Below are positions 29,002-64,000 of a stretch of 64,000 nt of DNA, piece by piece. Source of the stretch: Nemertoderma westbladi (Eukaryota > Animalia > Xenacoelomorpha). The position numbers were made by a program, and so were the translations under genes. The notes beneath the pieces are model-generated. The model was given only the letters and a program-made list of their open reading frames with translations, made no database searches and had not been told where the DNA came from. Where the stretch lies: contig JAUCBJ010000742.1 of the NCBI GenBank assembly GCA_032718475.1, positions 1 to 64,000 on the forward strand. The letters are read 5' to 3'. The stretch's first letter is position 1. Every line of letters begins with the position of its first letter.

Positions 29002-29146
29002 CGATGCCTGAACGAATCAAACACCATCTGGCGGTGAACCATGGAACCTACAGTCCGGATTCCTTGTTCTGGAATCAGACTGATGGGCACCCGGAAGATG
29101 AGTTCACATCCATATCTGAGTTCTCTGACGTCACATACAACAGCAG
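29002..29146 (+). CDS. CAMTA: CAMTA-like exon (145 nt, phase 1 to 2): (A)MPERIKHHLAVNHGTYSPDSLFWNQTDGHPEDEFTSISEFSDVTYNS
   Basis: Preceded by a 93-nt GT-AG intron (28909-29001, ending ttcttccatag). The frame is open, the donor is CAG|gtacac, and the exon completes the AMPERIK motif across the junction. Confidence 0.85.
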
Positions 29147-30072: not shown

Positions 30073-30642
30073 CCCATTGAGAGACTGCTCCATGGAAATC
30101 AGAATGGGTTCCGTAAAGGTCGTGGGACCATGGAGCCCATTTTGGCACTTAGAAGGATAATTGAAGAGTTATCAAAAAAGAAAGATAGGCATCTGGCTGT
30201 CATCTTTGTTGACTTCTTCAAGGCCTTTGATTCAGTCTCTCGCTCACGTATGTTCAGCATACTTTCATTATATGGGATTCCTGATTAAATTATTGCAGCA
30301 ATCAGATCAGTATACGATGGTTCAACAACATTTGTGTCTACTGTTGACGGTGACACAGAACCATTTGAAGTGTTATGGGTCGTCCTCCAAGGAGACACAC
30401 TTGCACCATTCTTGTTCATTATTGTGGTTGACTATGTTCTACGCACGTCCTTAGATCATCATAATGATGATGGGGTAATGATAACTCCACCTACTGGCTC
30501 CAGAAGTCGAGGAAATCCTGTCAAGTACCTATCTGATCTAGACTTTGCTGATGACTTAGGAGTACTCTCAGAATCATTAGAGGGAGCCCAACGGCTCCTC
30601 AGCTCATTAGATCATGCTGCTTCTAGTGTTGGTCTTTATATT
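30073..30642 (+). mobile_element. Truncated non-LTR retrotransposon reverse transcriptase fragment (RTE/RTE-X-like), pseudogenised
   Basis: One frame reads NQNGFRKGRGT...ILALRRIIEE...IFVDFFKAFDSV...YGIPD*...LQGDTLAPFLFIIVVDYVLR...LSDLDFADDLGVLS...SVGLYI, covering typical LINE RT motifs including (Y/F)ADD. In-frame TAA at 30286-30288. Confidence 0.92.
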
Positions 30643-30904
30643 AAGGGGGTTATCACCCCAAATCTATTTTGTTTTTAATTTTTATAGCTACTGTTCTGAA
30701 TCTTTAACACAATTATCTGTGACCATTAACTAAGAAAACTGAATATGGATACCTTCGCAAACCATTTTCTTCGAAAAATTGGGGACTTTTTGTAGCAGTC
30801 TGTTTTTTTCAAAATTTGTAAGCTTATAGACACCTGAAGTTGTAGAAGCGAACTACCACAACTCTTACTACTAGAATCGGCGTGCTGCATTGCAGCTACA
30901 TTTT

Positions 30905-31025
30905 TAAGAATGCTGTGCCGGCTTATCGGCAAAATTGCACCGCCACAACTCCCTGTCACCCATGACATTTGCTAGATCATTCGCATCTTCAATGCCAGTG
31001 TCCTTTAAGATGGTATTTTTGGTAC
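30905..31025 (-). mobile_element. C-terminal ORF fragment of an RTE-like LINE, opposite strand to the RT fragment
   Basis: Minus strand reads NTILKDTGIEDANDLANVMGDRELWRCNF, resembling the C-terminal motif of RTE-group ORFs (LxxDTGL...L...M.DR..WR). Recognised by eye. Confidence 0.6.
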
Positions 31026-31484
31026 GATTGGTATATTATTAAAGATAAATTGCCGCAATATCGGCAAACTCTATTGATATTGGCTATTAATTTATATCAC
31101 TAAAATTTAATTTTATTCTATCTGTGTGTTGCGGAATTTTCTATTTTAGGATATAAGATCACTGGATGGCATTTTTTTGTATGTTGTTTTAGAAATCGAT
31201 GAAAGTTATTATATATTCTGACTATAAAGTTAGTAGGAATGTAATAAATAGGAATAACATAATATTATAAATAATTTCAGTTATTGAAATTATTTGTCAT
31301 AATTGTCATTATTTGACAATTATTTGTCACAGAGATTAATGCCGTCTTACTTTTCCTATATAATAAATATAGAGTTCATTTGATCGCTCTATACGGTAAA
31401 AGATAGTTCCGCTTTTAAAGTTTTATTGCATAAACTCTTCCCTTTTTCTCATCTCATATTCTGGAATTCGATTTGTTTTTATAG

Positions 31485-31590
31485 TTGCAGGGCTTCGTCT
31501 GGGAGTCAGTTCAGTCCGGCTTCGTCAATGTACAGCTACAGTTCGGCTTCGGAGACGGATTGCTTTGCGTTAACCTACCACCCAGGACAG
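31485..31590 (+). CDS. CAMTA: CAMTA-like exon (106 nt, phase 2 to 0): (S)CRASSGSQFSPASSMYSYSSASETDCFALTYHPGQ
   Basis: Acceptor atttgtttttatag| at 31484, with an alternative in-frame CAG at 31490. It is a GC-richer island in an AT-rich intron, phase-compatible with the previous exon, and encodes a Ser-rich SPASS segment. Its donor CAG|gtgaga is the first copy of array B. Confidence 0.75.
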
Positions 31591-34500
31591 GTGAGATATT
31601 GGTAAACTACAACCCGGGACAGGTGAGATATTGGTAAACTACAACCCGGGACAGGTGAGATATTGGTAAACTACAACCCGGGACAGGTGAGATATTGGTA
31701 AACTACAACCCGGGACAGGTGAGATATTGGTAAACTACAACCCAGGACAGGTGAGATATTGGTAAACTACAACCCAGGGCAGGTGAGATATTGGTAAACT
31801 ACAACCCAGGGCAGGTGAGATATTGGTAAACTACAACCCAGGACAGGTGAGATATTGGTAAACTACAACCCAGGACAGGTGAGATATTGGTAAACTACAA
31901 CCCAGGGCAGGTGAGATATTGGTAAACTACAACCCAGGACAGGTGAGATATTGGTAAACTACAACCCAGGACAGGTGAGATATTGGTAAACTACAACCCA
32001 GGACAGGTGAGATATTGGGAAACTACAACCCAGGGCAGGTGAGATATTGGTAAACTACAACCCAGGTCAGGTGAGATATTGGTAAACTACAACCCAGGAC
32101 AGGTGAGATATTGGTAAACTACAACCCAGGGCAGGTGAGATATTGGTAAACTACAACCCAGGACAGGTGAGATATTGGTAAACTACAACCCAGGACAGGT
32201 GAGATATTGGTAAACTACAACCCAGGACAGGTGAGATATTGGGAAACTACAACCCAGGGCAGGTGAGATATTGGTAAACTACAACCCAGGACAGGTGAGA
32301 TATTGGTAAACTACAACCCAGGACAGGTGAGATATTGGTAAACTACAACCCAGGACAGGTGAGATATTGGTAAACTACAACCCAGGACAGGTGAGATATT
32401 GGTAAACTACAACCCAGGACAGGTGAGATATTGGTAAACTACAACCCAGGACAGGTGAGATATTGGTAAACTACAACCCAGGACAGGTGAGATATTGGTA
32501 AACTACAACCCAGGACAGGTGAGATATTGGGAAAATACAACCAGGACAGGTGAGATATTGGTAAACTACAACCCAGGACAGGTGAGATATTGGTAAACTA
32601 CAACCCAGGGCAGGTGAGATATTGGTAAACTACAACCCAGGACAGGTGAGATATTGGTAAACTACAACCCAGGACAGGTGAGATATTGGTAAACTACAAC
32701 CCAGGACAGGTGAGATATTGGTAAACTACAACCCAGGACAGGTGAGATATTGGTAAACTACAACCCAGGACAGGTGAGATATTGGTAAACTACAACCCAG
32801 GACAGGTGAGATATTGGTAAACTACAACCCAGGACAGGTGAGATATTGGTAAACTACAACCCAAGACAGGTGAGATATTGGTAAACTACAACCCAGGACA
32901 GGTGAGATATTGGTAAACTACAACCCAGGACAGGTGAGATATTGCGAAAATACAACCCAGGACAGGTGAGATATTGCGAAAATACAACCAGGACAGGTGA
33001 GATATTGGGAAACTACAACCCAGGACAGGTGAGATATTGCGAAAATACAACCCAGGACAGGTGAGATATTGGGAAACTACAACCCAGGACAGGTGAGATA
33101 TTGGTAAACTACAACCCAGGGCAGGTGAGATATTGGTAAACTACAACCCAGGACAGGTGAGATATTGCGAAAATACAACCAGGACAGGTGAGATATTGGG
33201 AAACTACAACCCAGGGCAGGTGAGATATTGGTAAACTACAACCCAGGACAGGTGAGATATTGGTAAACTACAACCCAGGGCAGGTGAGATATTGGTAAAC
33301 TACAACCCAGGGCAGGTGAGATATTGGGAAAATACAACCAGGACAGGTGAGATATTGGGAAAATACAACCCAGGACAGGTGAGATATTGGTAAACTACAA
33401 CCCAGGACAGGTGAGATATTGGGAAAATACAACCAGGACAGGTGAGATATTGGTAAACTACAACCCAGGGCAGGTGAGATATTGGTAAACTACAACCCAG
33501 GGCAGGTGAGATATTGGGAAAATACAACCAGGACAGGTGAGATATTGGGAAAATACAACCCAGGACAGGTGAGATATTGGGAAAATACAACCAGGACAGG
33601 TGAGATATTGGTAAACTACAACCCAGGGCAGGTGAGATATTGGTAAACTACAACCCAGGGCAGGTGAGATATTGGGAAAATACAACCAGGACAGGTGAGA
33701 TATTGGGAAAATACAACCCAGGACAGGTGAGATATTGGGAAAATACAACCAGGACAGGTGAGATATTGGGAAAATACAACCAGGACAGGTGAGATATTGG
33801 GAAAATACAACCCAGGACAGGTGAGATATTGGGAAAATACAACCAGGACAGGTGAGATATTGGTAAACTACAACCCAGGGCAGGTGAGATATTGGTAAAC
33901 TACAACCCAGGGCAGGTGAGATATTGGGAAAATACAACCAGGACAGGTGAGATATTGGGAAAATACAACCCAGGACAGGTGAGATATTGGGAAAATACAA
34001 CCAGGACAGGTGAGATATTGGTAAACTACAACCCAGGGCAGGTGAGATATTGGTAAACTACAACCCAGGGCAGGTGAGATATTGGGAAAATACAACCAGG
34101 ACAGGTGAGATATTGGGAAAATACAACCCAGGACAGGTGAGATATTGGTAAACTACAACCCAGGGCAGGTGAGATATTGGGAAAATACAACCAGGACAGG
34201 TGAGATATTGGTAAACTACAACCCAGGACAGGTGAGATATTGGTAAACTACAACCCAGGACAGGTGAGATATTGGGAAAATACAACCAGGACAGGTGAGA
34301 TATTGGGAAAATACAAACCAGGACAGGTGAGATATTGGGAAAATACAACCCAGGACAGGTGAGATATTGGGAAAATACAACCCAGGACAGGTGAGATATT
34401 GGTAAACTACAACCCAGGGCAGGTGAGATATTGGGAAAATACAACCCAGGACAGGTGAGATATTGGTAAACTACAACCCAGGGCAGGTGAGATATTGGGA

Positions 34501-37500
34501 AAATACAACCAGGACAGGTGAGATATTGGGAAAATACAACCCAGGACAGGTGAGATATTGGTAAACTACAACCCAGGGCAGGTGAGATATTGGGAAAATA
34601 CAACCAGGACAGGTGAGATATTGGGAAAATACAACCCAGGACAGGTGAGATATTGGTAAACTACAACCCAAGACAGGTGAGATATTGGTAAACTACAACC
34701 CAAGACAGGTGAGATATTGGGAAACTACAACCCAAGGACAGGTGAGATATTGGGAAACTACAACCCAGGACAGGTGAGATATTGCGAAAATACAACCCAG
34801 GACAGGTGAGATATTGCGAAAATACAACCAGGACAGGTGAGATATTGGGAAACTACAACCCAGGGCAGGTGAGATATTGGGAAAATACAACCAGGACAGG
34901 TGAGATATTGGGAAAATACAACCCAGGACAGGTGAGATATTGGGAAACTACAACCCAGGACAGGTGAGATATTGGTAAACTACAACCCAGGGCAGGTGAG
35001 ATATTGCGAAAATACAACCAGGACAGGTGAGATATTGGGAAAATACAACCCAGGACAGGTGAGATATTGGTAAACTACAACCCAGGACAGGTGAGATATT
35101 GGGAAAATACAACCCAGGGCAGGTGAGATATTGGGAAAATACAACCAGGACAGGTGAGATATTGGGAAAATACAACCCAGGACAGGTGAGATATTGGTAA
35201 ACTACAACCCAAGACAGGTGAGATATTGGTAAACTACAACCCAAGACAGGTGAGATATTGGGAAACTACAACCCAGGACAGGTGAGATATTGCGAAAATA
35301 CAACCAGGACAGGTGAGATATTGGGAAACTACAACCCAGGGCAGGTGAGATATTGGTAAACTACAACCCAGGACAGGTGAGATATTGGTAAACTACAACC
35401 CAGGGCAGGTGAGATATTGGTAAACTACAACCCAGGGCAGGTGAGATATTGCGAAAATACAACCAGGACAGGTGAGATATTGGTAAACTACAACCCAGGA
35501 CAGGTGAGATATTGGTAAACTACAACCCAAGACAGGTGAGATATTGGGAAACTACAACCCAGGACAGGTGAGATATTGGGAAAATACAACCAGGACAGGT
35601 GAGATATTGGTAAACTACAACCCAGGGCAGGTGAGATATTGCGAAAATACAACCCAGGACAGGTGAGATATTGGTAAACTACAACCCAGGACAGGTGAGA
35701 TATTGGTAAACTACAACCCAGGACAGGTGAGATATTGGTAAACTACAACCCAGGACAGGTGAGATATTGCGAAAATACAACCAGGACAGGTGAGATATTG
35801 GGAAACTACAACCCAGGGCAGGTGAGATATTGGGAAACTACAACCCAGGGCAGGTGAGATATTGGTAAACTACAACCCAGGACAGGTGAGATATTGGTAA
35901 ACTACAACCCAGGGCAGGTGAGATATTGGTAAACTACAACCCAGGACAGGTGAGATATTGGTAAACTACAACCCAGGGCAGGTGAGATATTGGTAAACTA
36001 CAACCCAGGACAGGTGAGATATTGGTAAACTACAACCCAAGACAGGTGAGATATTGGGAAACTACAACCCAGGACAGGTGAGATATTGCGAAAATACAAC
36101 CAGGACAGGTGAGATATTGGTAAACTACAACCCAGGACAGGTGAGATATTGCGAAACTACAACCAGGACAGGTGAGATATTGGTAAACTACAACCCAGGG
36201 CAGGTGAGATATTGGGAAACTACAACCAGGACAGGTGAGATATTGGTAAACTACAACCCAGGGCAGGTGAGATATTGGTAAACTACAACCCAGGACAGGT
36301 GAGATATTGGTAAACTACAACCTAGGGCAGGTGAGATATTGGTAAACTACAACCAGGACAGGTGAGATATTGGTAAACTACAACCCAGGACAGGTGAGAT
36401 ATTGCGAAAATACAACCAGGACAGGTGAGATATTGGTAAACTACAACCCAAGACAGGTGAGATATTGCGAAAATACAACCAGGACAGGTGAGATATTGGT
36501 AAACTACAACCCAGGACAGGTGAGATATTGCGAAAATACAACCCAGGACAGGTGAGATATTGGTAAACTACAACCCAGGACAGGTGAGATATTGGTAAAC
36601 TACAACCGAGGACAGGTGAGATATTGGTAAACTACAACCCAGGACAGGTGAGATATTGGTAAACTACAACCCAGGGCAGGTGAGATATTGGTAAACTACA
36701 ACCCAAGACAGGTGAGATATTGGTAAACTACAACCCAGGACAGGTGAGATATTGCGAAAATACAACCCAGGACAGGTGAGATATTGGTAAACTACAACCC
36801 AGGACAGGTGAGATATTGCGAAAATACAACCCAGGACAGGTGAGATATTGGTAAACTACAACCCAGGACAGGTGAGATATTGGTAAACTACAACCGAGGA
36901 CAGGTGAGATATTGGTAAACTACAACCCAGGGCAGGTGAGATATTGGTAAACTACAACCCAAGACAGGTGAGATATTGGTAAACTACAACCGAGGACAGG
37001 TGAGATATTGGTAAACTACAACCCAGGGCAGGTGAGATATTGGTAAACTACAACCGAGGACAGGTGAGATATTGGTAAACTACAACCCAGGGCAGGTGAG
37101 ATATTGGTAAACTACAACCCAGGACAGGTGAGATATTGGTAAACTACAACCGAGGACAGGTGAGATATTGGTAAACTACAACCCAGGGCAGGTGAGATAT
37201 TGGTAAACTACAACCCAAGACAGGTGAGATATTGCGAAAATACAACCAGGACAGGTGAGATATTGGGAAAATACAACCAGGACAGGTGAGATATTGGTAA
37301 ACTACAACCCAGGACAGGTGAGATATTGCGAAAATACAACCAGGACAGGTGAGATATTGGGAAAATACAACCAGGACAGGTGAGATATTGGTAAACTACA
37401 ACCCAGGACAGGTGAGATATTGGGAAACTACAACCCAGGACAGGTGAGATATTGGTAAACTACAACCCAGGGCAGGTGAGATATTGGTAAACTACAACCC

Positions 37501-40500
37501 AGGGCAGGTGAGATATTGGTAAACTACAACCCAGGACAGGTGAGATATTGGGAAACTACAACCCAGGACAGGTGAGATATTGGTAAACTACAACCCAGGG
37601 CAGGTGAGATATTGGTAAACTACAACCCAGGGCAGGTGAGATATTGGTAAACTACAACCCAGGACAGGTGAGATATTGCGAAAATACAACCAGGACAGGT
37701 GAGATATTGGTAAACTACAACCCAGGATAGGTGAGATATTGGTAAACTACAACCCAGGACAGGTGAGATATTGGTAAACTACAACCCAGGACAGGTGAGA
37801 TATTGCGAAAATACAACCAGGACAGGTGAGATATTGGTAAACTACAACCCAGGATAGGTGAGATATTGGTAAACTACAACCCAGGATAGGTGAGATATTG
37901 GTAAACTACAACCAGGACAGGTGAGATATTGCGAAAATACAACCAGGACAGGTGAGATATTGGTAAACTACAACCCAGGACAGGTGAGATATTGGTAAAC
38001 TACAACCCAGGGCAGGTGAGATATTGGTAAACTACAACCCAGGACAGGTGAGATATTGGGAAACTACAACCTAGGACAGGTGAGATATTGGTAAACTACA
38101 ACCCAGGATAGGTGAGATATTGGTAAACTACAACCCAGGACAGGTGAGATATTGGTAAACTACAACCCAGGACAGGTGAGATATTGCGAAAATACAACCA
38201 GGACAGGTGAGATATTGGTAAACTACAACCCAGGATAGGTGAGATATTGGTAAACTACAAACAACCCAGGACAGGTGAGATATTGGTAAACTACAACCCA
38301 GGACAGGTGAGATATTGGTAAACTACAACCCAGGACAGGTGAGATATTGGGAAACTACAACCTAGGACAGGTGAGATATTGGTAAACTACAACCCAGGAT
38401 AGGTGAGATATTGGTAAACTACAACCCAGGACAGGTGAGATATTGGTAAACTACAAACAACCCAGGACAGGTGAGATATTGGTAAACTACAACCCAGGAC
38501 AGGTGAGATATTGGTAAACTACAACCCAGGACAGGTGAGATATTGGGAAACTACAACCTAGGACAGGTGAGATATTGGTAAACTACAACCCAGGATAGGT
38601 GAGATATTGGTAAACTACAACCCAGGACAGGTGAGATATTGGTAAACTACAACCCAGGACAGGTGAGATATTGCGAAAATACAACCAGGACAGGTGAGAT
38701 ATTGCGAAAATACAACCAGGACAGGTGAGATATTGGTAAACTACAACCCAAGACAGGTGAGATATTGCGAAAATACAACCCAGGACAGGTGAGATATTGG
38801 TAAACTACAACCAGGACAGGTGAGATATTGGTAAACTACAACCCAGGATAGGTGAGATATTGGTAAACTACAACCCAGGACAGGTGAGATATTGCGAAAA
38901 TACAACCAGGACAGGTGAGATATTGGTAAACTACAACCCAGGACAGGTGAGATATTGCGAAAATACAACCAGGACAGGTGAGATATTGGTAAACTACAAC
39001 CTAGGACAGGTGAGATATTGGGAAAATACAACCCAGGACAGGTGAGATATTGGTAAACTACAACCCAGGACAGGTGAGATATTGGTAAACTACAACCCAA
39101 GACAGGTGAGATATTGGGAAACTACAACCTAGGACAGGTGAGATATTGGTAAACTACAACCCAGGACAGGTGAGATATTGGTAAACTACAACCCAAGACA
39201 GGTGAGATATTGGTAAACTACAACCCAGGACAGGTGAGATATTGGGAAAATACAACCCAGGACAGGTGAGATATTGCGAAAATACAACCAGGACAGGTGA
39301 GATATTGGTAAACTACAACCCAGGACAGGTGAGATATTGCGAAAATACAACCCAGGACAGGTGAGATATTGGTAAACTACAACCTAGGACAGGTGAGATA
39401 TTGGGAAAATACAACCCAGGACAGGTGAGATATTGGTAAACTACAACCCAGGACAGGTGAGATATTGGTAAACTACAACCCAAGACAGGTGAGATATTGG
39501 GAAACTACAACCTAGGACAGGTGAGATATTGGTAAACTACAACCCAGGACAGGTGAGATATTGGTAAACTACAACCCAAGACAGGTGAGATATTGGTAAA
39601 CTACAACCCAGGACAGGTGAGATATTGGGAAAATACAACCCAGGACAGGTGAGATATTGGTAAACTACAACCTAGGACAGGTGAGATATTGGGAAAATAC
39701 AACCCAGGACAGGTGAGATATTGGTAAACTACAACCCAGGACAGGTGAGATATTGGTAAACTACAACCCAGGACAGGTGAGATATTGGGAAAATACAACC
39801 CAGGACAGGTGAGATATTGGTAAACTACAACCCAGGACAGGTGAGATATTGGTAAACTACAACCCAGGACAGGTGAGATATTGGTAAACTACAACCCAGG
39901 ACAGGTGAGATATTGGTAAACTACAACCCAGGACAGGTGAGATATTGCGAAAATACAACCCAGGACAGGTGAGATATTGCGAAAATACAACCAGGACAGG
40001 TGAGATATTGGGAAACTACAACCCAGGATAGGTGAGATATTGGTAAACTACAACCGAGGACAGGTGAGATATTGGTAAACTACAACCCAAGACAGGTGAG
40101 ATATTGCGAAAATACAACCAGGGCAGGTGAGATATTGCGAAAATACAACCAGGGCAGGTGAGATATTGGGAAACTACAACCAGGACAGGTGAGATATTGG
40201 TAAACTACAACCCAGGGCAGGTGAGATATTGGTAAACTACAACCCAGGACAGGTGAGATATTGGTAAACTACAACCCAAGACAGGTGAGATATTGCGAAA
40301 ATACAACCAGGACAGGTGAGATATTGGTAAACTACAACCCAGGGCAGGTGAGATATTGGTAAACTACAACCCAGGACAGGTGAGATATTGGTAAACTACA
40401 ACCCAAGACAGGTGAGATATTGCGAAAATACAACCAGGGCAGGTGAGATATTGCGAAAATACAACCAGGGCAGGTGAGATATTGGGAAACTACAACCAGG

Positions 40501-43500
40501 ACAGGTGAGATATTGGTAAACTACAACCCAGGGCAGGTGAGATATTGGTAAACTACAACCCAGGACAGGTGAGATATTGGTAAACTACAACCCAAGACAG
40601 GTGAGATATTGCGAAAATACAACCAGGACAGGTGAGATATTGGTAAACTACAACCCAAGACAGGTGAGATATTGCGAAAATACAACCAGGACAGGTGAGA
40701 TATTGGTAAACTACAACCCAAGACAGGTGAGATATTGGGAAACTACAACCCAGGACAGGTGAGATATTGGTAAACTACAACCCAGGACAGGTGAGATATT
40801 GGTAAACTACAACCCAGGACAGGTGAGATATTGGGAAACTACAACCTAAGGACAGGTGAGATATTGGGAAACTACAACCCAGGGCAGGTGAGATATTGGT
40901 AAACTACAACCCAGGGCAGGTGAGATATTGGGAAACTACAACCCAGTACAGGTGAGATATTGCGAAAATACAACCCAGGACAGGTGAGATATTGCGAAAA
41001 TACAACCAGGACAGGTGAGATATTGGGAAACTACAACCCAGGGCAGGTGAGATATTGGTAAACTACAACCCAGGACAGGTGAGATATTGGTAAACTACAA
41101 CCCAAGACAGGTGAGATATTGGTAAACTACAACCCAGGACAGGTGAGATATTGGTAAACTACAACCAGGACAGGTGAGATATTGCGAAAATACAACCAGG
41201 ACAGGTGAGATATTGGGAAACTACAACCCAGGGCAGGTGAGATATTGGTAAACTACAACCCAGGACAGGTGAGATATTGGTAAACTACAACCCAAGACAG
41301 GTGAGATATTGCGAAAATACAACCAGGACAGGTGAGATATTGGGAAACTACAACCCAGGACAGGTGAGATATTGGGAAACTACAACCCAGGACAGGTGAG
41401 ATATTGGTAAACTACAACCCAGGACAGGTGAGATATTGGGAAACTACAACCCAGGACAGGTGAGATATTGGTAAACTACAACCCAGGACAGGTGAGATAT
41501 TGGGAAACTACAACCCAGGACAGGTGAGATATTGGTAAACTACAACCCAGGGCAGGTGAGATATTGGGAAACTACAACCCAGGACAGGTGAGATATTGGT
41601 AAACTACAACCCAGGACAGGTGAGATATTGGGAAACTACAACCCAGGACAGGTGAGATATTGGTAAACTACAACCCAGGACAGGTGAGATATTGGGAAAC
41701 TACAACCCAGGACAGGTGAGATATTGGTAAACTACAACCCAGGGCAGGTGAGATATTGCGAAAATACAACCAGGACAGGTGAGATATTGGGAAACTACAA
41801 CCCAGGACAGGTGAGATATTGCGAAAATACAACCAGGACAGGTGAGATATTGGGAAACTACAACCCAGGACAGGTGAGATATTGGTAAACTACAACCCAG
41901 GGCAGGTGAGATATTGGTAAACTACAACCCAGGACAGGTGAGATATTGGTAAACTACAACCCAAGACAGGTGAGATATTGCGAAAATACAACCAGGACAG
42001 GTGAGATATTGGGAAACTACAACCTAAGGACAGGTGAGATATTGGTAAACTACAACCCAGGACAGGTGAGATATTGGTAAACTACAACCCAGGACAGGTG
42101 AGATATTGCGAAAATACAACCTAAGGACAGGTGAGATATTGGTAAACTACAACCCAGTACAGGTGAGATATTGGGAAAATACAACCCAGGACAGGTGAGA
42201 TATTGGGAAACTACAACCCAGGACAGGTGAGATATTGGGAAACTACAACCCAGGACAGGTGAGATATTGGTAAACTACAACCTAAGGACAGGTGAGATAT
42301 TGGGAAACTACAACCCAGGACAGGTGAGATATTGGTAAACTACAACCTAAGGACAGGTGAGATATTGGGAAACTACAACCCAGGACAGGTGAGATATTGG
42401 TAAACTACAACCTAAGGACAGGTGAGATATTGGGAAACTACAACCCAGGACAGGTGAGATATTGGTAAACTACAACCTAAGGACAGGTGAGATATTGGGA
42501 AACTACAACCCAGGACAGGTGAGATATTGGTAAACTACAACCCAGGACAGGTGAGATATTGGGAAACTACAACCCAGGACAGGTGAGATATTGGTAAACT
42601 ACAACCCAGGACAGGTGAGATATTGGTAAACTACAACCCAGGACAGGTGAGATATTGGGAAACTACAACCCAGGACAGGTGAGATATTGCGTAAACTACA
42701 ACCAGGACAGGTGAGATATTGGGAAACTACAACCCAGGACAGGTGAGATATTGGTAAACTACAACCCAGGGCAGGTGAGATATTGGTAAACTACAACCCA
42801 GGACAGGTGAGATATTGCGAAAATACAACCAGGACAGGTGAGATATTGGGAAACTACAACCCAGGACAGGTGAGATATTGGTAAACTACAACCCAGGACA
42901 GGTGAGATATTGGTAAACTACAACCCAAGACAGGTGAGATATTGCGAAAATACAACCCAGGACAGGTGAGATATTGGGAAACTACAACCCAGGACAGGTG
43001 AGATATTGGTAAACTACAACCCAGGACAGGTGAGATATTGGTAAACTACAACCCAGGACAGGTGAGATATTGCGAAAATACAACCCAGGACAGGTGAGAT
43101 ATTGGTAAACTACAACCCAGGACAGGTGAGATATTGGGAAACTACAACCCAGGACAGGTGAGATATTGGTAAACTACAACCCAGGACAGGTGAGATATTG
43201 CGAAAATACAACCAGGACAGGTGAGATATTGGGAAACTACAACCCAGGACAGGTGAGATATTGGTAAACTACAACCCAGGACAGGTGAGATATTGGTAAA
43301 CTACAACCCAGGACAGGTGAGATATTGCGAAAATACAACCAGGACAGGTGAGATATTGGGAAACTACAACCCAGGACAGGTGAGATATTGGTAAACTACA
43401 ACCCAGGACAGGTGAGATATTGGTAAACTACAACCCAGGACAGGTGAGATATTGGGAAACTACAACCCAGGACAGGTGAGATATTGGTAAACTACAACCC

Positions 43501-49500: not shown

Positions 49501-52500
49501 GACAGGTGAGATATTGGTAAACTACAACCCAAGACAGGTGAGATATTGCGAAAATACAACCAGGACAGGTGAGATATTGGGAAACTACAACCCAGGACAG
49601 GTGAGATATTGGTAAACTACAACCCAGGACAGGTGAGATATTGGTAAAATACAACCCAGGACAGGTGAGATATTGGGAAACTACAACCCAGGACAGGTGA
49701 GATATTGGTAAACTACAACCCAAGACAGGTGAGATATTGCGAAAATACAACCAGGACAGGTGAGATATTGGGAAACTACAACCCAGGGCAGGTGAGATAT
49801 TGGTAAACTACAACCCAGGGCAGGTGAGATATTGGTAAACTACAACCCAGGGCAGGTGAGATATTGGGAAAATACAACCCAGGACAGGTGAGATATTGGT
49901 AAACTACAACCCAGGACAGGTGAGATATTGGTAAACTACAACCCAGGACAGGTGAGATATTGGTAAACTACAACCCAGGACAGGTGAGATATTGGGAAAC
50001 TACAACCCAGGACAGGTGAGATATTGGTAAACTACAACCCAGGACAGGTGAGATATTGGTAAACTACAACCCAGGACAGGTGAGATATTGGTAAACTACA
50101 ACCCAGGACAGGTGAGATATTGGGAAACTACAACCCAGGACAGGTGAGATATTGGTAAACTACAACCCAGGACAGGTGAGATATTGGTAAACTACAACCC
50201 AGGACAGGTGAGATATTGGTAAACTACAACCCAAGACAGGTGAGATATTGCGAAAATACAACCAGGACAGGTGAGATATTGGTAAACTACAACCCAGGAC
50301 AGGTGAGATATTGGTAAACTACAACCCAAGACAGGTGAGATATTGCGAAAATACAACCAGGACAGGTGAGATATTGGGAAACTACAACCAGGACAGGTGA
50401 GATATTGCGAAAATACAACCAGGACAGGTGAGATATTGGGAAACTACAACCTAAGGACAGGTGAGATATTGGGAAACTACAACCCAGGACAGGTGAGATA
50501 TTGGTAAACTACAACCCAGGACAGGTGAGATATTGGTAAACTACAACCCAAGACAGGTGAGATATTGCGAAAATACAACCAGGACAGGTGAGATATTGGG
50601 AAACTACAACCCAGGGCAGGTGAGATATTGGTAAACTACAACCCAGGACAGGTGAGATATTGGTAAACTACAACCCAGGACAGGTGAGATATTGCGAAAA
50701 TACAACCCAAGACAGGTGAGATATTGCGAAAATACAACCAGGACAGGTGAGATATTGGGAAACTACAACCAGGACAGGTGAGATATTGGTAAACTACAAC
50801 CCAAGACAGGTGAGATATTGGTAAACTACAACCCAGGACAGGTGAGATATTGGTAAACTACAACCCAAGACAGGTGAGATATTGCGAAAATACAACCAGG
50901 ACAGGTGAGATATTGCGAAAATACAACCAGGACAGGTGAGATATTGGTAAACTACAACCCAAGACAGGTGAGATATTGGTAAACTACAACCCAGGGCAGG
51001 TGAGATATTGGTAAACTACAACCCAAGACAGGTGAGATATTGGTAAACTACAACCCAAGACAGGTGAGATATTGGTAAACTACAACCCAGGACAGGTGAG
51101 ATATTGGGAAACTACAACCCAGGACAGGTGAGATATTGCGAAAATACAACCAGGACAGGTGAGATATTGGTAAACTACAACCCAAGACAGGTGAGATATT
51201 GGTAAACTACAACCCAGGACAGGTGAGATATTGGTAAACTACAACCCAAGACAGGTGAGATATTGGTAAACTACAACCCAGGGCAGGTGAGATATTGGTA
51301 AACTACAACCCAGGGCAGGTGAGATATTGGTAAACTACAACCCAGGGCAGGTGAGATATTGCGAAAATACAACCAGGACAGGTGAGATATTGCGAAAATA
51401 CAACCAGGACAGGTGAGATATTGGTAAACTACAACCCAGGACAGGTGAGATATTGGTAAACTACAACCCAGGACAGGTGAGATATTGGTAAACTACAACC
51501 AGGACAGGTGAGATATTGGTAAACTACAACCCAAGACAGGTGAGATATTGGTAAACTACAACCCAGGGCAGGTGAGATATTGGTAAACTACAACCCAAGA
51601 CAGGTGAGATATTGGTAAACTACAACCCAAGACAGGTGAGATATTGGTAAACTACAACCCAGGACAGGTGAGATATTGGGAAACTACAACCCAGGACAGG
51701 TGAGATATTGCGAAAATACAACCAGGACAGGTGAGATATTGGTAAACTACAACCCAAGACAGGTGAGATATTGGTAAACTACAACCCAGGACAGGTGAGA
51801 TATTGGTAAACTACAACCCAAGACAGGTGAGATATTGGTAAACTACAACCCAGGGCAGGTGAGATATTGGTAAACTACAACCCAGGGCAGGTGAGATATT
51901 GGTAAACTACAACCCAGGGCAGGTGAGATATTGCGAAAATACAACCAGGACAGGTGAGATATTGCGAAAATACAACCAGGACAGGTGAGATATTGGTAAA
52001 CTACAACCCAGGACAGGTGAGATATTGGTAAACTACAACCCAGGACAGGTGAGATATTGGTAAACTACAACCAGGACAGGTGAGATATTGGTAAACTACA
52101 ACCCAGGACAGGTGAGATATTGGTAAACTACAACCCAGGACAGGTGAGATATTGGTAAACTACAACCCAGGACAGGTGAGATATTGCGAAAATACAACCA
52201 GGACAGGTGAGATATTGGTAAACTACAACCCAGGACAGGTGAGATATTGGTAAACTACAACCCAGGACAGGTGAGATATTGCGAAAATACAACCAGGACA
52301 GGTGAGATATTGGTAAACTACAACCCAGGACAGGTGAGATATTGGTAAACTACAACCAGGGCAGGTGAGATATTGGTAAACTACAACCAGGACAGGTGAG
52401 ATATTGGTAAACTACAACCCAGGACAGGTGAGATATTGGTAAACTACAACCAGGACAGGTGAGATATTGGTAAACTACAACCCAGGACAGGTGAGATATT

Positions 52501-55500
52501 GCGAAAATACAACCAGGACAGGTGAGATATTGCGAAAATACAACCAGGACAGGTGAGATATTGGTAAACTACAACCCAGGACAGGTGAGATATTGGTAAA
52601 CTACAACCCAGGACAGGTGAGATATTGGTAAACTACAACCAGGACAGGTGAGATATTGGTAAACTACAACCCAGGACAGGTGAGATATTGGTAAACTACA
52701 ACCCAGGACAGGTGAGATATTGGTAAACTACAACCCAGGACAGGTGAGATATTGCGAAAATACAACCAGGACAGGTGAGATATTGGTAAACTACAACCCA
52801 GGACAGGTGAGATATTGGTAAACTACAACCCAGGACAGGTGAGATATTGCGAAAATACAACCAGGACAGGTGAGATATTGGTAAACTACAACCCAGGACA
52901 GGTGAGATATTGGTAAACTACAACCCAGGACAGGTGAGATATTGCGAAAATACAACCAGGACAGGTGAGATATTGGTAAACTACAACCCAAGACAGGTGA
53001 GATATTGGTAACCTACAACCCAGGGCAGGTGAGATATTGGTAAACTACAACCCAGGGCAGGTGAGATATTGCGAAAATACAACCAGGACAGGTGAGATAT
53101 TGGTAAACTACAACCAGGACAGGTGAGATATTGCGAAAATACAACCAGGACAGGTGAGATATTGGTAAACTACAACCCAGGACAGGTGAGATATTGGTAA
53201 ACTACAACCCAGGACAGGTGAGATATTGGTAAACTACAACCCAGGACAGGTGAGATATTGGTAAACTACAACCCAGGACAGGTGAGATATTGGTAAACTA
53301 CAACCCAGGACAGGTGAGATATTGCGAAAATACAACCAGGACAGGTGAGATATTGGTAAACTACAACCCAGGACAGGTGAGATATTGGTAAACTACAACC
53401 CAGGACAGGTGAGATATTGCGAAAATACAACCAGGACAGGTGAGATATTGGTAAACTACAACCCAGGACAGGTGAGATATTGGTAAACTACAACCCAGGA
53501 CAGGTGAGATATTGCGAAAATACAACCAGGACAGGTGAGATATTGGTAAACTACAACCCAGGACAGGTGAGATATTGGTAAACTACAACCCAGGACAGGT
53601 GAGATATTGGTAAACTACAACCCAGGACAGGTGAGATATTGGTAAACTACAACCCAGGACAGGTGAGATATTGGTAAACTACAACCCAGGACAGGTGAGA
53701 TATTGCGAAAATACAACCAGGACAGGTGAGATATTGGTAAACTACAACCCAGGACAGGTGAGATATTGGTAAACTACAACCCAGGACAGGTGAGATATTG
53801 GTAAACTACAACCCAGGACAGGTGAGATATTGGTAAACTACAACCCAGGACAGGTGAGATATTGGTAAACTACAACCAGGACAGGTGAGATATTGGTAAA
53901 CTACAACCCAGGACAGGTGAGATATTGGTAAACTACAACCCAGGACAGGTGAGATATTGCGAAAATACAACCAGGACAGGTGAGATATTGGTAAACTACA
54001 ACCCAGGACAGGTGAGATATTGGTAAACTACAACCCAGGACAGGTGAGATATTGGTAAACTACAACCCAGGACAGGTGAGATATTGGTAAACTACAACCC
54101 AGGACAGGTGAGATATTGGTAAACTACAACCAGGACAGGTGAGATATTGGTAAACTACAACCCAGGACAGGTGAGATATTGGTAAACTACAACCCAGGAC
54201 AGGTGAGATATTGCGAAAATACAACCAGGACAGGTGAGATATTGGTAAACTACAACCCAGGACAGGTGAGATATTGGTAAACTACAACCCAGGACAGGTG
54301 AGATATTGGTAAACTACAACCCAGGACAGGTGAGATATTGGTAAACTACAACCCAGGACAGGTGAGATATTGGTAAACTACAACCCAGGACAGGTGAGAT
54401 ATTGGTAAACTACAACCCAGGACAGGTGAGATATTGCGAAAATACAACCAGGACAGGTGAGATATTGGTAAACTACAACCCAGGACAGGTGAGATATTGG
54501 TAAACTACAACCCAGGACAGGTGAGATATTGCGAAAATACAACCAGGACAGGTGAGATATTGGTAAACTACAACCCAAGACAGGTGAGATATTGGTAACC
54601 TACAACCCAGGGCAGGTGAGATATTGGTAAACTACAACCCAGGGCAGGTGAGATATTGCGAAAATACAACCAGGACAGGTGAGATATTGGTAAACTACAA
54701 CCCAGGACAGGTGAGATATTGGTAAACTACAACCCAGGACAGGTGAGATATTGGTAAACTACAACCCAGGACAGGTGAGATATTGGTAAACTACAACCCA
54801 GGACAGGTGAGATATTGGTAAACTACAACCCAGGACAGGTGAGATATTGGTAAACTACAACCCAGGACAGGTGAGATATTGGTAAACTACAACCAGGCCA
54901 GGTGAGATATTGGTAAACTACAACCCAGGACAGGTGAGATATTGGTAAACTACAACCCAGGACAGGTGAGATATTGGTAAAATACAACCCAGGACAGGTG
55001 AGATATTGGTAAACTACAACCCAGGACAGGTGAGATATTGGTAAACTACAACCAGGCCAGGTGAGATATTGGTAAACTACAACCCAGGACAGGTGAGATA
55101 TTGGTAAACTACAACCCAGGACAGGTGAGATATTGGTAAACTACAACCCAGGACAGGTGAGATATTGGTAAACTACAACCCAGGACAGGTGAGATATTGG
55201 TAAACTACAACCCAGGACAGGTGAGATATTGGTAAACTACAACCAGGCCAGGTGAGATATTGGTAAACTACAACCCAGGACAGGTGAGATATTGGTAAAC
55301 TACAACCCAGGACAGGTGAGATATTGGTAAAATACAACCCAGGACAGGTGAGATATTGGTAAACTACAACCCAGGACAGGTGAGATATTGGTAAACTACA
55401 ACCAGGCCAGGTGAGATATTGGTAAACTACAACCCAGGACAGGTGAGATATTGGTAAACTACAACCCAGGACAGGTGAGATATTGGTAAAATACAACCCA

Positions 55501-58500
55501 GGACAGGTGAGATATTGGTAAACTACAACCCAGGACAGGTGAGATATTGCGAAAATACAACCAGGACAGGTGAGATATTGCGAAAATACAACCAGGACAG
55601 GTGAGATATTGGTAAACTACAACCCAGGGCAGGTGAGATATTGGTAAACTACAACCCAGGACAGGTGAGATATTGGTAAACTACAACCCAGGACAGGTGA
55701 GATATTGGTAAACTACAACCCAGGACAGGTGAGATATTGGTAAACTACAACCCAGGACAGGTGAGATATTGGTAAACTACAACCCAGGACAGGTGAGATA
55801 TTGGTAAACTACAACCCAGGACAGGTGAGATATTGCGAAAATACAACCAGGACAGGTGAGATATTGCGAAAATACAACCCAGGGCAGGTGAGATATTGGT
55901 AAACTACAACCCAGGACAGGTGAGATATTGGTAAACTACAACCAGGACAGGTGAGATATTGGTAAACTACAACCCAGGACAGGTGAGATATTGGTAAACT
56001 ACAACCAGGACAGGTGAGATATTGGTAAACTACAACCCAGGACAGGTGAGATATTGGTAAACTACAACCAGGACAGGTGAGATATTGGTAAACTACAACC
56101 CAGGACAGGTGAGATATTGGTAAACTACAACCCAGGACAGGTGAGATATTGGTAAACTACAACCCAGGACAGGTGAGATATTGGGAAAATACAACCCAGG
56201 ACAGGTGAGATATTGCGAAAATACAACCAGGACAGGTGAGATATTGCGAAAATACAACCAGGACAGGTGAGATATTGGGAAACTACAACCCAGGACAGGT
56301 GAGATATTGGTAAACTACAACCCAGGACAGGTGAGATATTGGTAAACTACAACCCAGGACAGGTGAGATATTGCGAAAATACAACCTAGGACAGGTGAGA
56401 TATTGCGTAAAATACAACCAGGACAGGTGAGATATTGGTAAACTACAACCCAGGACAGGTGAGATATTGGTAAACTACAACCCAGGACAGGTGAGATATT
56501 GCGAAAATACAACCTAGGACAGGTGAGATATTGCGAAAATACAACCAGGACAGGTGAGATATTGGTAAACTACAACCCAGGACAGGTGAGATATTGGTAA
56601 ACTACAACCCAGGACAGGTGAGATATTGGTAAACTACAACCCAGGACAGGTGAGATATTGGTAAACTACAACCCAGGACAGATGAGATATTGGTAAACTA
56701 CAACCCAGGACAGGTGAGATATTGGTAAACTACAACCCAGGACAGGTGAGATATTGGTAAACTACAACCCAGGACAGGTGAGATATTGGTAAACTACAAC
56801 CCAGGACAGGTGAGATATTGGTAAACTACAACCCAGGGCAGGTGAGATATTGCGAAAATACAACCAGGACAGGTGAGATATTGGTAAACTACAACCCAGG
56901 ACAGGTGAGATATTGCGAAAATACAACCTAGGACAGGTGAGATATTGCGAAAATACAACCAGGACAGGTGAGATATTGGTAAACTACAACCCAGGACAGG
57001 TGAGATATTGCGAAAATACAACCTAGGACAGGTGAGATATTGCGAAAATACAACCAGGACAGGTGAGATATTGGTAAACTACAACCCAGGACAGGTGAGA
57101 TATTGGTAAACTACAACCCAGGACAGGTGAGATATTGGTAAACTACAACCCAGGACAGGTGAGATATTGGTAAACTACAACCCAGGACAGATGAGATATT
57201 GGTAAACTACAACCCAGGACAGGTGAGATATTGGTAAACTACAACCCAGGACAGGTGAGATATTGGTAAACTACAACCCAGGACAGGTGAGATATTGGTA
57301 AACTACAAACCAGGACAGGTGAGATATTGGTAAACTACAACCCAGGACAGGTGAGATATTGCGAAAATACAACCAGGACAGGTGAGATATTGGTAAACTA
57401 CAACCCAGGACAGGTGAGATATTGCGAAAATACAACCAGGACAGGTGAGATATTGGTAAACTACAACCCAGGACAGGTGAGATATTGCGAAAATACAACC
57501 AGGACAGGTGAGATATTGCGAAACTACAACCAGGACAGGTGAGATATTGCGAAAATACAACCAGGACAGGTGAGATATTGCGAAAATACAACCAGGACAG
57601 GTGAGATATTGCGAAAATACAACCAGGACAGGTGAGATATTGCGAAAATACAACCAGGACAGGTGAGATATTGCGAAAATACAACCAGGACAGGTGAGAT
57701 ATTGCGAAAATACAACCAGGACAGGTGAGATATTGCGAAAATACAACCAGGACAGGTGAGATATTGCGAAAATACAACCAGGACAGGTGAGATATTGCGA
57801 AAATACAACCAGGACAGGTGAGATATTGGGAAAATACAACCAGGACAGGTGAGATATTGCGAAAATACAACCAGGACAGGTGAGATATTGCGAAAATACA
57901 ACCAGGACAGGTGAGATATTGCGAAAATACAACCAGGACAGGTGAGATATTGCGAAAATACAACCAGGACAGGTGAGATATTGCGAAAATACAACCAGGA
58001 CAGGTGAGATATTGGGAAAATACAACCAGGACAGGTGAGATATTGGTAAACTACAACCCAGGACAGGTGAGATATTGGTAAACTACAACCCAGGACAGGT
58101 GAGATATTGGTAAACTACAACCCAGGACAGGTGAGATATTGCGAAAATACAACCTAGGACAGGTGAGATATTGCGAAAATACAACCCAGGACAGGTGAGA
58201 TATTGGTAAACTACAACCCAGGACAGGTGAGATATTGCGTAAACTACAACCTAGGACAGGTGAGATATTGCGAAAATACAACCAGGACAGGTGAGATATT
58301 GGTAAACTACAACCCAGGACAGGTGAGATATTGGTAAACTACAACCCAGGACAGGTGAGATATTGCGAAAATACAACCTAGGACAGGTGAGATATTGCGA
58401 AAATACAACCTAGGACAGGTGAGATATTGCGAAAATACAACCAGGACAGGTGAGATATTGGTAAACTACAACCCAGGACAGGTGAGATATTGCGAAAATA

Positions 58501-61500
58501 CAACCTAGGACAGGTGAGATATTGCGAAAATACAACCAGGACAGGTGAGATATTGGTAAACTACAACCCAGGACAGGTGAGATATTGGTAAACTACAACC
58601 CAGGACAGGTGAGATATTGGTAAACTACAACCCAGGACAGGTGAGATATTGGAAACTACAACCCAGGACAGGTGAGATATTGGTAAACTACAACCCAGGA
58701 CAGGTGAGATATTGCGAAACTACAACCAGGACAGGTGAGATATTGGTAAACTACAACCCAGGACAGGTGAGATATTGCGAAAATACAACCAGGACAGGTG
58801 AGATATTGCGAAACTACAACCCAGGACAGGTGAGATATTGCGAAAATACAACCAGGACAGGTGAGATATTGCGAAAATACAACCAGGACAGGTGAGATAT
58901 TGCGAAAATACAACCAGGACAGGTGAGATATTGCGAAAATACAACCAGGACAGGTGAGATATTGCGAAAATACAACCCAGGACAGGTGAGATATTGCGAA
59001 AATACAACCAGGACAGGTGAGATATTGCGAAAATACAACCAGGACAGGTGAGATATTGCGAAAATACAACCAGGACAGGTGAGATATTGCGAAAATACAA
59101 CCAGGACAGGTGAGATATTGGTAAACTACAACCCAGGGCAGGTGAGATATTGGTAAACTACAACCCAGGACAGGTGAGATATTGGTAAACTACAACCGAG
59201 GACAGGTGAGATATTGGGAAACTACAACCCAGGGCAGGTGAGATATTGGTAAACTACAACCCAGGACAGGTGAGATATTGGTAAACTACAACCCAGGACA
59301 GGTGAGATATTGGTAAACTACAACCCAGGACAGGTGAGATATTGGTAAACTACAACCGAGGACAGGTGAGATATTGGGAAACTACAACCCAGGACAGGTG
59401 AGATATTGCGAAAATACAACCAGGACAGGTGAGATATTGCGAAACTACAACCAGGACAGGTGAGATATTGCGAAAATACAACCAGGACAGGTGAGATATT
59501 GCGAAAATACAACCAGGACAGGTGAGATATTGCGAAAATACAACCAGGACAGGTGAGATATTGCGAAAATACAACCAGGACAGGTGAGATATTGCGAAAA
59601 TACAACCAGGACAGGTGAGATATTGCGAAAATACAACCAGGACAGGTGAGATATTGCGAAAATACAACCCAGGACAGGTGAGATATTGGTAAACTACAAC
59701 CCAGGGCAGGTGAGATATTGGTAAACTACAACCCAGGACAGGTGAGATATTGGTAAACTACAACCCAGGACAGGTGAGATATTGGGAAAATACAACCAGG
59801 ACAGGTGAGATATTGCGAAAATACAACCAGGACAGGTGAGATATTGCGAAAATACAACCAGGACAGGTGAGATATTGCGAAAATACAACCAGGACAGGTG
59901 AGATATTGCGAAAATACAACCAGGACAGGTGAGATATTGCGAAAATACAACCAGGACAGGTGAGATATTGCGAAAATACAACCAGGACAGGTGAGATATT
60001 GCGAAAATACAACCCAGGACAGGTGAGATATTGCGAAAATACAACCAGGACAGGTGAGATATTGCGAAAATACAACCAGGACAGGTGAGATATTGCGAAA
60101 ATACAACCAGGACAGGTGAGATATTGGAAAATACAACCAGGACAGGTGAGATATTGCGAAAATACAACCAGGACAGGTGAGATATTGCGAAAATACAACC
60201 AGGACAGGTGAGATATTGCGAAAATACAACCAGGACAGGTGAGATATTGGGAAACTACAACCCAGGACAGGTGAGATATTGCGAAAATACAACCAGGACA
60301 GGTGAGATATTGCGAAAATACAACCAGGACAGGTGAGATATTGCGAAAATACAACCAGGACAGGTGAGATATTGCGAAAATACAACCAGGACAGGTGAGA
60401 TATTGGGAAACTACAACCCAGGACAGGTGAGATATTGCGAAAATACAACCAGGACAGGTGAGATATTGCGAAAATACAACCAGGACAGGTGAGATATTGC
60501 GAAAATACAACCAGGACAGGTGAGATATTGCGAAAATACAACCAGGACAGGTGAGATATTGCGAAAATACAACCAGGACAGGTGAGATATTGGGAAAATA
60601 CAACCAGGACAGGTGAGATATTGCGAAAATACAACCAGGACAGGTGAGATATTGGGAAACTACAACCCAGGACAGGTGAGATATTGGTAAACTACAACCC
60701 AGGACAGGTGAGATATTGGTAAACTACAACCCAGGACAGGTGAGATATTGGTAAACTACAACCCAGGACAGGTGAGATATTGCGAAAATACAACCAGGAC
60801 AGGTGAGATATTGCGAAAATACAACCAGGACAGGTGAGATATTGCGAAAATACAACCAGGACAGGTGAGATATTGCGAAAATACAACCAGGACAGGTGAG
60901 ATATTGCGAAAATACAACCAGGACAGGTGAGATATTGGGAAACTACAACCCAAGACAGGTGAGATATTGGTAAACTACAACCCAGGACAGGTGAGATATT
61001 GGTAAACTACAACCCAGGACAGGTGAGATATTGCGAAAATACAACCAGGACAGGTGAGATATTGCGAAAATACAACCAGGACAGGTGAGATATTGCGAAA
61101 ATACAACCAGGACAGGTGAGATATTGCGAAAATACAACCAGGACAGGTGAGATATTGGGAAACTACAACCCAGGACAGGTGAGATATTGCGAAAATACAA
61201 CCAGGACAGGTGAGATATTGCGAAAATACAACCAGGACAGGTGAGATATTGCGAAAATACAACCAGGACAGGTGAGATATTGCGAAAATACAACCAGGAC
61301 AGGTGAGATATTGCGAAAATACAACCAGGACAGGTGAGATATTGGGAAAATACAACCAGGACAGGTGAGATATTGGTAAACTACAACCCAGGACAGGTGA
61401 GATATTGGTAAACTACAACCCAGGACAGGTGAGATATTGGTAAACTACAACCCAGGACAGGTGAGATATTGCGAAAATACAACCCAGGACAGGTGAGATA

Positions 61501-64000
61501 TTGCGAAAATACAACCTAGGACAGGTGAGATATTGCGAAAATACAACCAGGACAGGTGAGATATTGCGAAAATACAACCAGGACAGGTGAGATATTGCGA
61601 AAATACAACCAGGACAGGTGAGATATTGGGAAACTACAACCCAAGACAGGTGAGATATTGGTAAACTACAACCCAGGACAGGTGAGATATTGGTAAACTA
61701 CAACCCAAGACAGGTGAGATATTGCGAAAATACAACCAGGACAGGTGAGATATTGCGAAAATACAACCAGGACAGGTGAGATATTGCGAAAATACAACCA
61801 GGACAGGTGAGATATTGCGAAAATACAACCAGGACAGGTGAGATATTGGGAAACTACAACCCAAGACAGGTGAGATATTGGTAAACTACAACCCAGGACA
61901 GGTGAGATATTGGTAAACTACAACCCAAGACAGGTGAGATATTGGTAAACTACAACCCAAGACAGGTGAGATATTGGTAAACTACAACCCAGGACAGGTG
62001 AGATATTGGTAAACTACAACCCAGGACAGGTGAGATATTGCGAAAATACAACCAGGACAGGTGAGATATTGCGAAAATACAACCAGGACAGGTGAGATAT
62101 TGCGAAAATACAACCAGGACAGGTGAGATATTGCGAAAATACAACCAGGACAGGTGAGATATTGGGAAACTACAACCCAAGACAGGTGAGATATTGGTAA
62201 ACTACAACCCAGGACAGGTGAGATATTGGTAAACTACAACCCAAGACAGGTGAGATATTGGTAAACTACAACCCAAGACAGGTGAGATATTGGTAAACTA
62301 CAACCCAGGACAGGTGAGATATTGGTAAACTACAACCCAGGACAGGTGAGATATTGCGAAAATACAACCAGGACAGGTGAGATATTGCGAAAATACAACC
62401 AGGACAGGTGAGATATTGCGAAAATACAACCAGGACAGGTGAGATATTGGGAAACTACAACCCAGGACAGGTGAGATATTGCGAAAATACAACCAGGACA
62501 GGTGAGATATTGCGAAAATACAACCAGGACAGGTGAGATATTGCGAAAATACAACCAGGACAGGTGAGATATTGCGAAAATACAACCAGGACAGGTGAGA
62601 TATTGCGAAAATACAACCAGGACAGGTGAGATATTGGGAAAATACAACCAGGACAGGTGAGATATTGGTAAACTACAACCCAAGACAGGTGAGATATTGG
62701 TAAACTACAACCCAGGACAGGTGAGATATTGGTAAACTACAACCCAGGACAGGTGAGATATTGCGAAAATACAACCCAGGACAGGTGAGATATTGCGAAA
62801 ATACAACCTAGGACAGGTGAGATATTGCGAAAATACAACCAGGACAGGTGAGATATTGCGAAAATACAACCAGGACAGGTGAGATATTGCGAAAATACAA
62901 CCAGGACAGGTGAGATATTGGGAAACTACAACCCAGGGCAGGTGAGATATTGGTAAACTACAACCCAAGACAGGTGAGATATTGGTAAACTACAACCCAG
63001 GACAGGTGAGATATTGGTAAACTACAACCCAGGACAGGTGAGATATTGCGAAAATACAACCAGGACAGGTGAGATATTGCGAAAATACAACCAGGACAGG
63101 TGAGATATTGCGAAAATACAACCAGGACAGGTGAGATATTGCGAAAATACAACCAGGACAGGTGAGATATTGCGAAAATACAACCAGGACAGGTGAGATA
63201 TTGGGAAACTACAACCCAGGACAGGTGAGATATTGGTAAACTACAACCCAAGACAGGTGAGATATTGGTAAACTACAACCCAGGACAGGTGAGATATTGG
63301 TAAACTACAACCCAGGACAGGTGAGATATTGGTAAACTACAACCCAGGACAGGTGAGATATTGCGAAAATACAACCTAGGACAGGTGAGATATTGCGAAA
63401 ATACAACCAGGACAGGTGAGATATTGCGAAAATACAACCAGGACAGGTGAGATATTGCGAAAATACAACCAGGACAGGTGAGATATTGGGAAACTACAAC
63501 CCAAGACAGGTGAGATATTGGTAAACTACAACCCAGGACAGGTGAGATATTGGTAAACTACAACCCAGGACAGGTGAGATATTGGTAAACTACAACCCAG
63601 GACAGGTGAGATATTGCGAAAATACAACCTAGGACAGGTGAGATATTGCGAAAATACAACCAGGACAGGTGAGATATTGCGAAAATACAACCAGGACAGG
63701 TGAGATATTGCGAAAATACAACCCAGGACAGGTGAGATATTGGTAAACTACAACCCAGGACAGGTGAGATATTGCGAAAATACAACCCAGGACAGGTGAG
63801 ATATTGCGAAAATACAACCAGGACAGGTGAGATATTGCGAAAATACAACCAGGACAGGTGAGATATTGCGAAAATACAACCAGGACAGGTGAGATATTGG
63901 GAAACTACAACCCAAGACAGGTGAGATATTGGTAAACTACAACCCAGGACAGGTGAGATATTGGTAAACTACAACCCAGGACAGGTGAGATATTGGTAAA
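31571..64000 (+). repeat. Minisatellite array B; 32-bp unit CAACCCAGGACAGGTGAGATATTGGTAAACTA and 31-bp variant CAACCAGGACAGGTGAGATATTGCGAAAATA; about 1,000 copies, running off the window end
   Basis: Read directly. The unit equals the last ~20 nt of exon 31485-31590 (TAACCTACCACCCAGGACAG) plus the first ~12 nt of the intron (GTGAGATATTGG). Confidence 0.98.

Follow-up and report, generated by a model that had tools for sequence, protein, structure and literature searches.

In this study, a stretch of 64,000 nucleotides (nt) from the xenacoelomorph Nemertoderma westbladi (contig JAUCBJ010000742.1, positions 1 to 64,000, forward strand; hereafter the window) was found to carry a gene, likely of the CAMTA family, in which a 32-base-pair (bp) tandem repeat of at least 1,021 units spans the end of a coding exon. 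This repeat, here termed array B, very probably represents an amplified existing donor, in which the exon end and its donor were tandemly copied more than 1,000 times into the following intron. The assembled messenger RNA (mRNA) is spliced at the first copy, and the other copies are likely silent decoys. The features concerned are the following:

31571 to 64000, plus strand: array B, a 32-bp tandem repeat of at least 1,021 units that continues past the window end.
31571 to 31602, plus strand: first unit of array B, straddling the real exon-intron boundary 31590/31591, which was mapped with RNA.
31588 to 31596, plus strand: authentic 5' splice site CAG|GTGAGA, the exon ending at 31590 in phase 0, from contigs of the two spliced runs X4 and X5.

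Tandem Repeats Finder, applied to the window, reported 31571-64000 with a period of 32, 1021.1 copies, 94% matches and a score of 53,827. The unit is composed of the last 20 nt of the exon at 31485-31590 and the first 12 nt of the intron. The original prediction of about 1,000 strong donors was borne out, as AG|GT was kept in 1,019 of the 1,021 units (1,010 with CAG|GTGAGA and 9 with TAG|GTGAGA), and two units with CAG|ATGAGA had no GT. Of the 1,020 copies that follow the real donor, 408 match it letter for letter over positions -11..+12 and 840 over -6..+11. Since the real donor is identical to 408 copies over the longer interval, it must be position and not strength that determines which donor is used. 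In its exon part, the first unit departs from the array consensus at 2 of 20 positions. At one of these positions the exon-specific letter was found in two array units (53009 and 54596), where it may be ancestral, recurrent or converted, and at the other it was found in none.

The 1,020 unit intervals measured 32 bp (731), 31 bp (269), 33 bp (17), 36 bp (2) and 30 bp (1). The 31-bp variant had been described as open in frame and as distal; the first part held, whereas the variant was present throughout the array, with 9 per 4 kilobases (kb) at its beginning and an increase to 75 per 4 kb close to the end. The commonest unit carries an in-frame stop, and the longest run without a stop on the plus strand of the array is 104 codons. 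The 52 unit types followed one another in a patchy order, with variants clustered in local runs, and no dominant higher-order period was found in array B (best lag identity 0.29 against a baseline of 0.19). Neither AATAAA nor ATTAAA occurs in the array within the window. The donor core, which comprises 9 of the 32 positions, held 2 of 24 change types (P = 0.019) and, for substitutions only, 2 of 17 (P = 0.10); by these change-type counts in array B, neither erosion nor significant conservation of the decoy donors was detected.

The position of the functional splice junction was taken from assembled contigs of sequencing runs. Seven runs were listed, none of them recorded as RNA, and six (X1-X6) were examined. 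X1 and X2 were unspliced DNA, X3 gave repeat contigs only, and X4 and X5 were spliced (2 of the 6 runs). X6 (organism B, labelled 'RNA?') held almost only mobile-element pieces and did not cover the exons. X5 (study P1) comes from the same sample as the DNA run X1, which carries array B, and X4 comes from study P3. Three coding exons were defined by these contigs:

28704 to 28908, plus strand: coding exon b, 205 nt, with the 3' end from the X4 joint 28906>29000 and the 5' end inferred from the AG and the frame.
29002 to 29146, plus strand: coding exon c, 145 nt, with its joints in X4.
31485 to 31590, plus strand: coding exon d, 106 nt, upstream of array B, with the X4 joint 29144>31483 (GT..AG, cut +2) and the X5 junction as a loose end.

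The X4 contig (1,529 nt) skipped 28909-29001 and 29147-31484 exactly at GT..AG, and its match to the window ended at 31590, after which 1,088 more letters followed. The exact skips, together with zero cover of X4 in the unique intron bins 29185-29572 and 31028-31415, demonstrated that this was spliced complementary DNA (cDNA). The X5 contig (485 nt) had the same junctions on both sides of exon d. The X4 contig matched exons b, c and d and the X5 contig matched exon d with 0 differences, and past 31590 both carried an identical stretch of 30 letters, which starts with CGGGAATGGAGC and keeps the frame open. Because the two matches ended at 31590 with the same continuation, exon d ends at the first donor. 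No contig joined exon d to a later array unit, a result that covers assembled contigs, in which rare forms are not visible; one 62-nt repeat-only contig, unjoined to an exon, was present in X4, and its abundance relative to the mRNA cannot be judged from contig depth. When the first donor is read through, the frame yields V-R-Y-W-stop, with an in-frame TAA at 31603-31605 on the plus strand that any later donor would include, which agreed with the earlier claims that a stop lies behind the first donor and that the use of later donors truncates the protein.

Two origins had been offered in the original prediction, namely expansion of an existing donor and intron gain by AG|GT tandem duplication. 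In the latter, classic model (Rogers, Hellsten et al.), a coding segment with AG|GT is duplicated, the first copy serving as donor and the last as acceptor, and it would accommodate both the AG|GT of 1,019 of 1,021 units and the open frame of the 31-bp variant. However, the model requires the next exon to start with the GT half of the unit. The exon was found to start with CGGGAATGGAGC in two studies; its first 12 letters match the intron half of the unit at 4 of 12 positions in an array that is 94% homogeneous, and this 12-mer is absent from the window. Moreover, the commonest unit has its in-frame stop, the array AGs are not preceded by a pyrimidine tract, and rescue of the model would need a paralogue origin of the X4 and X5 contigs, which match the exons with 0 differences. 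Mapping of the cDNA junction refuted this origin, as the mRNA continues into sequence unlike the 3' half of the unit, and we assign it next to no probability. The expansion of an existing donor was supported, and the part of the unit after AG was intronic, not coding, by the X4 and X5 junction.

The acceptor potential of array B was compared with that of the gene's four acceptors, of which two are RNA-confirmed and two inferred. Among the 3,056 AGs of the array within the window, the 20 nt before AG contained at most 10 pyrimidines, against 12-15 at the gene's acceptors. For the AG that precedes GT in the unit, the counts were 5-9 pyrimidines and 1-4 T, against 12-15 and 6-14. The array AGs have no pyrimidine tract, which speaks against the last unit as acceptor and against recursive use. 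A second array, which is the mirror image of array B, is present in the same gene:

2869 to 28742, plus strand: array A, a 47-bp repeat across the exon b acceptor.

Of the 472 acceptor-like sites in array A, the last is the presumed real acceptor, and 146 (the real one included) are identical over -8..+20. The first approximately 39 nt of exon b are the last unit of array A. The array is preceded by 111 nt of unique intronic sequence and by a stop at 2791, and array A therefore grew from an existing boundary. The decoy acceptors occupy approximately 26 kb, and arrays A and B flank one 2.9-kb exon cluster. Both ends of this cluster have thus expanded outwards into their introns, which is better explained by a genome in which short duplications are readily amplified than by a special event at the donor.

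These observations bear on the alternative that the intron consists entirely of repeat, in which a 32-nt GT...AG piece (12 new nt and a copy of the last 20 nt of the exon) was inserted into uninterrupted coding sequence and then amplified, with the last AG as the acceptor. From its GT, each unit is indeed bounded by GT...AG, the cDNA junction fits this alternative equally well, and the array end lies past the window. Against it stand the pyrimidine-poor AGs of the unit and the growth of array A, in the same gene, from a boundary that already existed. In addition, no X2 or X3 contig left the array into unique sequence, which is a weak negative on this point, an exit through a divergent unit being undetectable. 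An intron of this type is regarded as very improbable.

The array might also be functional, with units that serve as sites of recursive or dual-specificity splicing or as poison donors under regulation. In a stepwise form, donor 1 joined to the AG of unit n would rebuild a near-identical exon end and donor, an event invisible in short reads. Such a role would draw on the CAG|GTGAGA of each unit, on the weak deficit of changes in the donor core and on the human UBC gene, in which, according to the available part of the report of Duan et al. (2024, PMC10809524), a dual-specific array of tandem AGGT sites is used. Array B resembles UBC in its tandem AGGT sites; unlike the coding monomers of UBC with their stochastic splicing, its units are non-coding after GT, contain a stop and have no pyrimidine tract (5-9 pyrimidines in 20 nt before AG|GT against 12-15). 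Furthermore, substitutions by themselves show no significant core deficit (P = 0.10-0.13), the deficit stems from a small number of founding changes, joins between exon d and a later unit are absent from the contigs, and splicing is undisturbed by the lancelet and F7 arrays considered below, as far as the accessible parts of those papers describe it. A functional array was judged quite unlikely. Likewise, we consider it quite unlikely that an intron built entirely or mostly of self-regenerating CAG|GTGAGA units is removed stepwise, with exon end and donor restored at each cut so that a satellite tens of kb long acts as its own splicing ratchet, or that the intron was born as one 32-nt GT...AG unit without a unique tail.

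Long homogeneous repeats are often mis-assembled, and no listed piece spans array B, so that its size could be suspected to be an artefact of the assembly. The reads spoke otherwise. Contigs of both DNA runs, X1 and X2, pass from the unique flank into unit 1. In X2, the unique flank running into the first unit had a depth of 19.4, and the repeat unitigs had depths of 17,500-20,000. Two X2 unitigs assignable to one sequence, with depths of 17,500 and 20,000, gave 53.6 and 54.4 per window copy against the flank value of 19.4; these depths are rounded, and the other 5 of the 7 repeat unitigs were excluded since they were not assignable to one sequence. The reads hold at least as many array B copies as the assembly, and the depths suggest about 2.8 times the window count. 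On this k-mer depth estimate, the haploid genome would contain some 2,800 units (about 90 kb), which assumes a similar composition past the window, a flank depth that represents both haplotypes (otherwise about half) and copies at this locus. With regard to length polymorphism of the array between individuals, the summed depth of 31513-31602 relative to the flank was about 210 in X1 and 306 in X2, although summed contig depth is not a copy number. The excess of copies in the reads over the window and the 52 unit types in patchy order make an assembly artefact exceedingly improbable.

Several points weigh against the amplified-donor interpretation. X4 and X5 were labelled 'DNA?' by guess and were taken as RNA from their spliced joints. 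Donors 2-7 would yield exons of 138-298 nt, and exon size alone does not bar their use. Low-level use of donor 2 or 3 is plausible, as Logan contigs drop rare variants, and the human 6-16 and CBS genes do make use of two further sites, according to the accessible part of PMC1557585. The scanning and decay that would operate in N. westbladi are assumed by analogy. The donor core has undergone little erosion, which hints weakly at constraint and is not expected under pure neutrality. Finally, the acceptor comparison covers the units within the window, and the last unit and the 3' end of the array lie past 64000.

Taking array B as an amplified donor, a mechanism may be proposed. A single 32-bp duplication across the existing exon-intron boundary would have started the array, and slippage or unequal exchange, suggested by the occurrence of variants in patchy runs without a dominant higher-order period, would have enlarged it. 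The expansion may have been tolerated in that every new copy would lie behind the real donor, and variants would spread in local runs as the coding edge copy stays apart. By analogy with human F7, where this has been shown, the spliceosome would commit to the first donor after the acceptor of the exon, that is, by exon definition with 5'-to-3' priority. The few transcripts that might use donor 2 or later would meet the stop at 31603, and nonsense-mediated decay could serve as a backstop. The real acceptor probably lies in unique sequence beyond array B.

Comparable junction repeats are known at a much smaller scale. In the available part of Borensztajn et al. (2006, PMC1557585), the human F7 gene is described as having a 37-bp variable number tandem repeat in IVS7 with 5-9 repeats, of which the first monomer spans the boundary and the most upstream donor is used. 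The same source lists other junction minisatellites in 6-16 (25 pseudo-sites), CBS (15-20), LMNB2 (10-15) and PDGF (16-18). Like the F7 IVS7 type, array B has a first monomer that spans the boundary, identical donors reiterated in the intron and use of the first of them. Unlike that type, as far as it is described there, array B has at least 1,021 units over at least 32 kb, and unlike 6-16 and CBS it showed no use of a further site in the contigs. Its donor count is about 40 times above the largest (26) in the portions of the literature examined.

In lancelets, the accessible parts of two papers (PMC3087553, PMC3902484) describe 'mirages', tandem duplications of donor or acceptor boundaries in Adh3, the globins BflGb6 and BflGb9, troponin C and PGBD5. 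Array B resembles these in occurring in an invertebrate, in the regular splicing that is kept and in an edge unit outside homogenisation, but in contrast to the mirages covered (3-6 units in BflGb6) it is of satellite scale and is paired with a 26-kb acceptor array. In the ATP2A1 intron gain by AGGT tandem duplication, as given in the available portion of Hellsten et al. (2011, PMC3265369), the duplicated coding segment supplies the start of the next exon; array B shares AG|GT in a tandem duplication with this case, whereas its post-AG half is intronic and absent from the mRNA. Array B has the defining features of junction-spanning minisatellites of the F7 and mirage types, and what is unusual here is the scale and the pairing of acceptor and donor arrays in one gene. 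No junction-spanning array of such size was found in the literature searched, where most subscription papers fell outside coverage.

In scale, array B exceeds the known examples of this oddity by one to two orders of magnitude. The gene yields a well-assembled mRNA, in frame, despite at least 1,020 competing donors and about 470 acceptor-like sites. At this locus, splice-site choice by position (first donor, last acceptor) can be weighed in a natural setting against the decay of mis-spliced transcripts, and the locus illustrates that an array of satellite size can arise from a splice junction. Recent intron gain by the classic model receives no support from it.

The gene itself includes one further coding exon:

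1318 to 2757, plus strand: coding exon a, with CAMTA-like ankyrin repeats, both ends inferred.

Spliced together, exons a-d form an open frame of 632 codons, and the introns between them are bounded by GT...AG. Exon a contains the Pfam domain Ank_2 (E 1.4e-08), and its first ESM Atlas cluster was 'CMTA1 protein (Fragment)' (0.97, 186/256 features), which is a lead without alignment. This ankyrin exon supported the earlier assignment of the gene to CAMTA, a calcium-responsive transcription factor. The hits of three protein searches (20, 13 and 16) were inversins and other ankyrin proteins, with no CAMTA among them, and the identity is for this reason put as likely, not proven, on sequence grounds. 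With 38 residues of exon b as the query, a HMMER library search yielded only 2 spurious repetitive hits, Pfam found no domain in exons b-d, and ESM Atlas gave no usable hit for exon b. IQ motifs are expected downstream in the CAMTA family, whose CG-1, TIG and IQ domains would fall outside the window, and the ten residues after the exon d junction are presumably similar to a conserved stretch before the IQ region of animal CAMTAs.

Several minor observations were made along the gene. In exon a, in-frame coding repeats were present at 1852-1937 (36 bp x 2.4) and 2680-2745 (21 bp x 3.1), another sign of frequent short duplications in the gene. Within array A, a 2.7-kb insertion at 12714-15438 with 29-nt terminal inverted repeats (90% complementary) is likely a non-autonomous DNA transposon, and repeats of 21 and 42 bp lie within it at 14057-14655. 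Position 28719, which lies 15 nt into exon b, is the start of contigs in both X1 (DNA) and X4 (spliced), whereas X2 is continuous there, perhaps owing to an allele difference in the last unit of array A. In the intron between exons c and d, a broken reverse-transcriptase-like frame at 30055-30678 (77 and 129 codons with a stop between), which we take to resemble a long interspersed nuclear element, was covered at very high contig depth in X1 and X2, and a second high-copy piece was located at about 30866-31012.

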